Source of the DNA: Escherichia phage ECP52
Sequence record: ON782582.1
DNA length: 64,000 nucleotides
Direction: 5' to 3' (one strand)
Part shown: piece after piece, positions 20,872 to 23,800 of the stretch
Layout: each line of letters begins with the position of its first letter
Numbering within the stretch: the stretch's first letter is position 1
The notes under the pieces: generated by a model
What the model was told of the DNA's origin: nothing
The model's database searches: none
The model's input: the letters and a program-made list of their open reading frames with translations, nothing else
Made by a program: the position numbers and the translations under genes

Positions 20872-23800
20872 TTATTTTAACAATGATTTAACTAATTTTT
20901 TAAGCTCTTCAATCTCTGACTTAAGTTCTGCAATTTCTGCAGTATGCTCATTGATTGCAGCTGTATTTAAACCAATTACACCGTTATAGTTCAAACGAAG
21001 TAAAGCTTCACTATCCTGATCACCTTCAACCAATTCAGGTAAAATAGCTTGAACTTCTTGAGCAATTAACCCAGCGTTTGGTTCCCATTTCTGATTACCT
21101 TCTTCATCTAGGCCTCGCTTCTGCATATAAGTGTAACCATTAATTTTTGAAAGCTTCTCAGAAGCATTTTCAAATTTAACTAGGTCCTTTTTAACACGAA
21201 TATCAGAGCGGACATAAACATCGCGGACATACGTTGAATAGCTGTCATTCGCCTGAACTAAATGACCATGAGAAATAACTGCTTTGCCAACTTCCGTCCA
21301 CAAAGCACCGTTTGAATCCCAAAGGCCAGGATGAGAATGATAAGATGAAGACCACGAAGCAATATGCACTCCATTTGCAACCATGTTAATTCGCCCATCA
21401 CCACCATGAACTAATCCGGTATCATTATCACCAATAACAACACATGCGCCTGTCCATACAGGGTCACCTCCACCAGCTGATAATCTTGCTCCAGCTTGAA
21501 CCATGTTAGGAGCATAAAAAGTACCATTAGAGTGGAATTCATAGATAGCTTGAGGGTCGGAGCCATTTTCCTGGTTACCGACACGGATAATACCTTGTGC
21601 CCAGGTATTAGTAGTGCGTCGCATACCAAAATCTACGCCGGAAAAATATCCTTCGTTAGTAATACCAGATTTTCCTTTAATAATAGGATAATAGCAGTCA
21701 TTGCTGACGGATCCAAAATCTACAAATATAGGAGCTTCTAAACCCCATTGGTCACCCCAGGCGCCAGATTTATGCGCAACCCATTGTGTACCGTTTATAT
21801 GAAGGCGGTCTCTATTAAAATTAAATGTTCCTTGACCTTGAGGAGAAAGCGATATTTCGCCGTTATTTGTTATGTATACACCGCCTTGTGTAATGTAACT
21901 ATAAAAACCTAGACCATTGTCGGCACCACCTTTACCAATATACCAATTATTGGCCCCGGCCGTATCAGAACGAATAAATGATGAATCACTAGCCAAAGGA
22001 GGATTAAGAACTATTCCAGCAGCATCTTTATTAATCCAAAGAGTGCCGGTCATCGTATCGCCTTCTTTAGCGACACGAGTAGCTATTGCATCGCGAATAT
22101 TAGTTACGTCGCCTGCTGAAGTAAACGTTTTCCAGATATCAGACCAGATATTACCATTGCGAGCAATAGTAGCTTCACCACCACCGACAGAAACGTTATC
22201 TGGGAAGTTAACAGTACCGTCCTGATTAAAACGAGACGTATGGCCTTGTGAACCATCTTCTTTCAGATGATGAATAACAAATGTACCTGAATTAATTTCA
22301 GTACCTAAAGACCAAACGGATTTACCGTTTAGAAACTTCTGTTTAACAATAGGATAATATTTGCTTACAGCATCATCATCGATTTCCTGGAAAATAGGAG
22401 CCGCTTGAACATATTGAATGTCATAACCACCAGCGCCTGCGCCGTGACCAGTAAATTTAATATAACCGTTTGCTGCAAACGTATTGTAACTTGATTGTAA
22501 ATCTGGAATAGTAACTTTACCAGTATCCAAAGCAATACTAAATGGACGAAGTGGACCGATATCACCATTTTTGCCTTCACCGTAAGCAGTTGGAATAATA
22601 TGAAGACTACCTTCTGAACGTCTAAAAATGGCTCCATAATCTGCATTCCAAATGCGAAGCGCATTCACTGCTCCAGATGAAATTTCGCCTGTTGTGTGAA
22701 CTCCTCTATTTCCAGCAGTAACACCAGATGATTCAAATGAACCGTTAACGTTCATTTCTACTTCACCAGTAGTAAGTCTTTGAATATAGCTCATCCAACT
22801 AGTTGCATCAGAAATTTCCATGACATTTTTGCGATTACCTTCACTAGGAATAATAAATGTATTACCCCACACGGAAATTGTCATATTATCAACTGAACTA
22901 CTACCAGTTGTGTTACCTCTAAACATCAGTGTAGAAGCATTATTTCTACCATCGATATTAACAGAACCACCAATAACGTCAATATTGCCTGGAGTAACTA
23001 ACAAACCGCCGTGAGTATTAATGTTTGTAGTGCCCTTGCCGCGGAAATAATGATGATAGTTACCGCCTTGATAATATCCTAAAAGAGTCTGACCATCTCC
23101 AAACGCGTTATTATCATGATATGTAACAACAGTAGCGAGAGCATAGTTTTCAGTCGGAGGAGTAGTTAAATCGGTTCCATTAGTAGAATACCCAGCTACA
23201 AATTTTCTTAGGCTAGTTGTTTCGCTAGGGCTAAATAAAAATGTTTTTGTTCCATTATTAACGCTGAAATAATATCCGTCTTGATGCCATTTAAATCCAG
23301 TATCATTATCTCCTAAAGCGATACTAGACGGTCCTAATATTGAGTAATCCTTAGGTCCGGGTGTTAAACCGATGGAAATTGAGTGACTTGATTTAATTCC
23401 GCCGCTCCAAGTAAATGACCAAAGATAAGCGTCTAATCCATCTCCACTATACCATGTTATTCCATCATTATCTTTAACTTCATGGAAAATACCAGAACCA
23501 ACGGCATTACGCATGACACGAAGATGATTAATAGCAGTAGTGCTTTCAGACAATGGAACATTGTCTGCCATCGAATAGATGTCATAATCACCCGTAGATT
23601 TATTATTAGTAATGACTTTGTTGGTCAGAATTTGTGGAGACGAAATAGATTTCCATGCTGATACTTCAGGTGAAGTAAATAGTCCACTGCCTGAAAATGC
23701 ATAAGTGCTTTCGCTACCAGCGGCGTAGTCTTGAACCCTGATATTAAGTACTTGTGTAGTTAAACCATCATTAGCCGGGGCATAAATGATTCCGCGTTCG

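Follow-up and report, generated by a model that had tools for sequence, protein, structure and literature searches.

A peptidase S74-type intramolecular chaperone domain at the C terminus of the long tail fiber protein gp37 of Escherichia phage ECP52, with a predicted autocleavage site

In phage S16, the last 113 residues of gp37 constitute an intramolecular chaperone (IMC) that is autocleaved at DLNVS^SDRRIKK (the caret marks the cut), which exposes the docking surface of gp38, and the N-terminal tryptophans of S16 gp38 occupy pockets in the tip of the cleaved gp37 (both as given in PMC7917993). A cut at DVYIR^SDGRLKI has been predicted for the fPS phages (PMC7917993). The gp37 proteins of T2 and T6 are proteolytically cleaved at the C terminus and then capped by gp38, according to PMC3157838, which cites Drexler, Riede, and Henning (1986); an earlier note on the DNA studied here had likewise mentioned that T2-type gp37 is reported to be processed C-terminally before gp38 binds. 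In MyRF, a eukaryotic homolog, the Ser-Lys dyad S587/K592 is equivalent to S911/K916 of the endosialidase endoNF, and either S587A or K592A abolishes cleavage (PMC8326128). The endosialidase Ser-Lys dyad is likewise required for cleavage, and an upstream arginine of endoNF stabilizes the oxyanion (PMC3742443); this arginine is numbered R897 in PMC8326128. Both the domain and its cleavage have thus been described for S16, and cleavage of gp37 has been described for T2 and T6. The domain is already known in gp37 of the T2/T6/S16 type, and its family is curated in Pfam.

The DNA analyzed here, the window, is a stretch of 64,000 nucleotides from Escherichia phage ECP52 (ON782582.1), and all positions refer to it. 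The window was assigned to a T-even (Tevenvirinae) phage genome, and a 12-kb stretch elsewhere in it shares 95% to 97% identity with Escherichia and Shigella Tequatrovirus genomes. The minus-strand gene order is 34-35-36-37-38-t, which matches T4 and T2, the latter having the same order gp37-gp38-t. The two genes of interest are the following.

20872..24186, minus strand: gene 37, long tail fiber distal subunit precursor (1,104 aa, calculated 118,974 Da; from the open reading frame [ORF] list).
20067..20840, minus strand: gene 38, T2/T6-type receptor-binding adhesin (257 aa; from Pfam and PDB matches).

The gene 37 product matches PHROG 1699, "long tail fiber protein distal subunit" (E = 0). 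The best whole-locus match in the phage collection is gene 37 of RB51/RB68, with about 90% DNA identity, and RB51 gp37, annotated as "similar to T6," is the closest full-length relative, with 91% amino acid identity. A search of gp37 against NCBIfam, a library for bacterial annotation, gave no match, and neither did a search of the whole window against Rfam at the gathering threshold. The gene 38 product matches Gp38_N (PF21721; E = 6.9e-20), GP38 (PF05268; E = 4.6e-83), and the PDB chain 6F45_D (E = 2.4e-47). An adhesin-type gene 38 is therefore found directly downstream of gene 37, which is the arrangement of T2/T6/S16-type tips and is shared with S16. As a separate observation, the nearest solved structure to gp38 is 9V85 (E = 7e-75 over residues 37 to 256), a GFP-gp38 fusion annotated as "Receptor-recognizing protein gp38," which is closer than S16 gp38.

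T4 gp37 (NC_000866) comes from the orthologous locus and, like gp37 of the window, has an N-terminal shaft with a Gp34_trimer domain. However, T4 gp37 carries Collar and Phage_fiber domains and has no match to the peptidase S74 profile PF13884 even at an E value of ≤1, which agrees with the claim of the earlier note that the T4 protein lacks this domain. The gp37 of the window shows the reverse pattern: it has no match to PF07484 or PF03335 and thus does not follow the T4 type. The T4 gp38 is also different, being unrelated to the adhesin type and serving as a separate assembly chaperone.

The resemblance of the last ~110 residues of gp37 to peptidase S74 chaperones, proposed earlier from the letters of the sequence, was confirmed by a profile search. 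The domain and its matched core are as follows.

20875..21207, minus strand: C-terminal intramolecular chaperone (IMC, peptidase S74) domain, residues 994 to 1104 (111 aa, calculated 12,438 Da).
21028..21207, minus strand: core matched by PF13884, residues 994 to 1053 (profile positions 1 to 57 of 58).

Translation of 20875..21207 on the minus strand yields S994 to K1104 (SDIRVKKD...KSLLK), the final 111 of the 1,104 residues, so that the domain sits at the extreme C terminus of gp37. The S994 codon occupies 21205..21207, and K1104 directly precedes the gene 37 stop codon (20872..20874). PF13884 (Peptidase_S74, "chaperone of endosialidase"), which has a curated gathering cutoff of 22 bits, matched the 111 residues alone with an E value of 2e-14 and 54.1 bits and the whole of gp37 with an E value of 1.2e-12 and 48.3 bits. 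Position 1 of the profile falls on S994, and the start coordinate given in the earlier note is therefore the N-terminal boundary of the family. In an alignment of 16 sequences, nine of which are close relatives (15 homologs were found, mostly as short fragments), S994, D995, K999, G1017, and P1050 are invariant, as are G1039, A1042, Q1043, and V1045 of the GLIAQEV motif within the core. About 30 PHROG tail fiber and baseplate families have profiles whose last positions match the 111-residue segment, and a tblastn search, with residues 90 to 111 of the segment masked, found relatives in 1,222 phage records. Such a distribution is characteristic of a mobile module at the C terminus.

The last ~30 residues are of low complexity and coiled-coil-like, and tblastn masked residues 90 to 111 of the segment; these features would suit a chance resemblance or a generic coiled-coil tail unrelated to S74 chaperones, as would a weak match to DivIC (E = 0.07). 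This explanation has next to no chance of being correct and was rejected, because the 54-bit Pfam match covers the nonhelical N-terminal 60 residues; in addition, profile and fold searches agree. Residues 994 to 1104 of gp37 form a C-terminal intramolecular chaperone domain that belongs to the peptidase S74 family.

A phmmer search of the PDB matched S16 gp37 (6F45_A; E = 5.4e-38) across the whole C terminus. In this alignment, DLNVSSDRRIKKD pairs with a segment of the window gp37, and over a longer stretch the S16 sequence YCRDLNVSSDRRIKKDI is paired with it. The S16 IMC (PDB 6F45; Dunne et al. 2018, as cited in PMC7917993) belongs to the same protein at the same position, and its 113 residues align end to end with the 111 residues found here. 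Both proteins share the SD-R-KKD start, the GLIAQEV motif, and an LNYNG motif, whereas the upstream fiber shafts are only partly related. The gp37 deposited in 6F45 has 204 aa, of which only 68 to 72 residues per chain are modeled, and the partial model fits a crystal without the IMC. A profile built from the 16 homologs matched the intramolecular chaperone (ICA) of MyRF (7DC3; E = 7e-14), the tail fiber 8JOV (E = 1e-11), the chaperone that is released from the neck appendage of Bacillus phage GA-1 (3GUD; E = 1.4e-4), and the tailspike 6EU4. The sequence SDERHK, from residue 1 onward of 3GUD, aligns to SDIRVK of gp37.

To predict the IMC fold, the final 182 residues of gp37 were modeled as a monomer with AlphaFold2. 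Over the IMC domain the block pLDDT was 72 to 96, and the predicted secondary structure runs from a short helix through a beta-hairpin and another short helix to two short strands, ending in a terminal helix of 37 residues. The model has the small beta/alpha core and long C-terminal helix expected of an S74 fold, and the helix is located as follows.

20878..20988, minus strand: long C-terminal alpha-helix, residues about 1067 to 1103 (H145 to 181 of the model, pLDDT of 82 to 96).

Upstream of the cut the model is poor (pLDDT of 32 to 41), as is expected because this region folds only as an intertwined trimer. The best Foldseek match in the PDB was 7DC3 (E = 7.8e-6, probability of 1.00). The endoNF chaperone 3GW6 followed with a probability of 0.94, but the match was modest (E = 0.02, TM of 0.26 to 0.37), and all other PDB matches had probabilities of ≤0.54. 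The endoNF domain, of MEROPS family S74, is the founding member of PF13884. Like the arrangement predicted in gp37, it has a dyad spacing of five and is released once the trimer has folded. Two PDB sequence searches (phmmer and the 16-homolog profile) gave no direct match to endoNF. It differs from the window gp37 in its upstream cargo, which is a sialidase tailspike instead of a fiber capped by an adhesin, and it has a long beta "tentacle" (PMC8326128). In the MyRF ICA, the best structural match, the C-terminal helix forms a triple coiled coil, and the equivalent helix drives trimerization (PMC8326128); the window domain is predicted to have a counterpart, and its C-terminal helix is likewise predicted to assemble into the trimeric coiled coil. 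However, MyRF is a eukaryotic membrane-bound transcription factor, and its cleavage frees a DNA-binding trimer and does not mature a virion fiber.

The alignments place a putative cut at the first residue of the domain, and the elements concerned are the following.

21205..21210, minus strand: predicted scissile bond R993-S994 (codons CGC TCT; from alignment to the S16 site).
21190..21192, minus strand: K999 (AAA), five residues past S994 and predicted to act as general base in the Ser-Lys dyad.
21208..24186, minus strand: predicted mature gp37, residues 1 to 993 (calculated 106,554 Da; end ...YVRDVYVR).

The cleavage serine that the earlier note had suspected within SDIRVKK corresponds to S994. 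By alignment to S16 DLNVS^SDRRIKK, the putative cut site reads DVYVR993^S994DIRVKK. The serine S994 also lines up with the first residue of 3GUD, the GA-1 chaperone chain, and with S587A of MyRF in 7DC3. K999 aligns with MyRF K592 (7DC3), which is equivalent to endoNF K916. Since the bond cut would be R993-S994, S994 is predicted to serve as the nucleophile and also to become the N-terminal residue of the fragment that is released. The strand motif preceding the serine, DVYVR, matches DVYIR of the fPS phages and NVYIR of T2 and aligns to DLNVS of S16. T2 gp37 (AP018813) has its PF13884 match at residues 1243 to 1300, with NVYIR^SDIRLK, and thus carries the S74 domain in the same gene and at the same C-terminal position as the window. 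The T2 IMC is shorter (99 aa), T2 gp37 is longer (1,341 versus 1,104 aa), and the C-terminal 200 residues of T2 are only 29% identical to the last 182 of the window.

The P1 residue is not conserved, being Arg in the window and Ser in S16. This difference would favor a homolog of the S74 type that is not cleaved in ECP52 and is kept on the mature fiber as a trimerization module. Such retention is very unlikely: both dyad residues, Ser994 and Lys999, are present and do not vary among the homologs, and Arg is also the P1 residue in the fPS phages and T2, which share the ...IR^SD context. Moreover, gp37 of T2 and T6 is reported as cleaved in PMC3157838, and the downstream gp38 adhesin needs a tip exposed by cleavage, as described for S16 in PMC7917993. 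A cut made by a separate host or phage protease, and not by the Ser-Lys dyad of the domain itself, would suit the wording "proteolytically cleaved" in the consulted passages of PMC3157838, where no enzyme is named. An even smaller probability is given to such a protease, since the dyad is conserved and the homologous domains of endoNF, MyRF, and S16 cleave themselves, also as recombinant proteins. Cleavage has been demonstrated for S16 and is predicted by homology for the window gp37. From this homology we infer that ECP52 gp37 undergoes autocleavage, at the bond given above and in the following order of events.

Three gp37 chains would associate through their IMC domains, with the long C-terminal helices forming a coiled coil. 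The IMC would then nucleate and check the folding of the upstream trimeric distal fiber. Once the trimer has folded correctly, Lys999 would activate Ser994 for attack on the Arg993-Ser994 bond, and each chain would shed a fragment of ~12.4 kDa (12,438 Da), leaving the gp37 of 993 residues and 106,554 Da. The three ...DVYVR ends may form a flat tip, where gp38 would dock through its N-terminal attachment domain, which bears tryptophans; the end of mature gp37 is thus the predicted gp38-docking tip. The gp38 N terminus in the window carries tryptophans corresponding to those of S16. Taken as a whole, the proposal that an S74 chaperone folds the trimer and cleaves itself at S994 and that gp38 then docks is very probable in view of the homologous systems.

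The junction between genes 37 and 38 was also inspected. The longest gp38 ORF starts at ATG 20870 (20067..20870, 267 aa) and is probably ten codons too long. This start was rejected in favor of ATG 20840 for two reasons: the Gp38_N match covers the longest ORF only from residue 11 onward, and ATG 20840 is preceded by a GGAGG at a distance of 5 nt. Read from ATG 20840, gp38 begins with MAVEGPWVG, and the gp38 proteins of RB51 and LF82-4 begin with MAVTGPWVG. One further element lies in the gap that separates genes 37 and 38.

20850..20869, minus strand: 8-bp hairpin UGAGGGGC-UUCG-GCCCCUUG with a UUCG tetraloop.

The energy of the local fold is -17.6 kcal/mol (z of -2.4 versus shuffles). The hairpin sequesters the first in-frame ATG (20870) of the longest gp38 ORF, and the GGAGG (20846..20850) comes directly after it. 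Its probable role is in stabilizing the mRNA or in mRNA processing, or else in setting the true gp38 start. The G+C content is 50% in gene 38, 36% in the window, and 34% in the IMC-coding segment, and the excess in gene 38 is likely due to its glycine-rich (GGN) motifs rather than to foreign origin.

The domain is strongly conserved among close relatives. Its first 89 residues are 100% identical to the copy in phage LF82-4 by tblastn, and 174 phage records reach an identity of 95% or more across the residues aligned, with residues 90 to 111 masked in this search. Near-identical copies occur in many deposited Tequatrovirus and Mosigvirus genomes. Residues 1001 to 1104 of gp37 share 94% to 100% identity with RB51 and LF82-4. 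In blocks of 50 residues, the distal shaft (21208..22086, residues about 701 to 1000) is 44% to 96% identical to RB51/LF82-4, and the N-terminal two-thirds of gp37 is mostly conserved, with blocks that are 66% to 100% identical. The IMC as a conserved module beside a variable distal shaft fits the known mosaicism of the locus. Because the best whole-locus DNA match is only about 90% and the shaft is mosaic, the gp37-gp38 combination may be a host-range variant without a deposited counterpart so far. The strong conservation beside a variable shaft is also compatible with a second, postcleavage role of the released 12.4-kDa fragment, acting in trans, gating gp38 loading, or functioning in the infected cell. 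If this were true, the fragment would be more than a discarded folding aid; constraints from folding and cleavage explain the conservation equally well, and a second role is considered highly improbable.

Several NCBI contigs of 165 to 167 kb labeled as E. coli encode a 170-aa "tail fiber domain-containing protein" that starts with MVANG(V/A)HIASWS and corresponds to only the last 170 residues of gp37. This suggests that gene 37 was called in split or truncated form in phage genomes filed as bacterial contigs.

The value of these results is practical and does not lie in new biology. Recombinant fiber tips of this kind must be made from constructs that include the chaperone, which is needed for folding. 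The predicted C terminus of mature gp37 is fixed at R993, the surface that would carry the gp38 adhesin, and this end is relevant to host-range engineering and to the interpretation of virion mass spectrometry.
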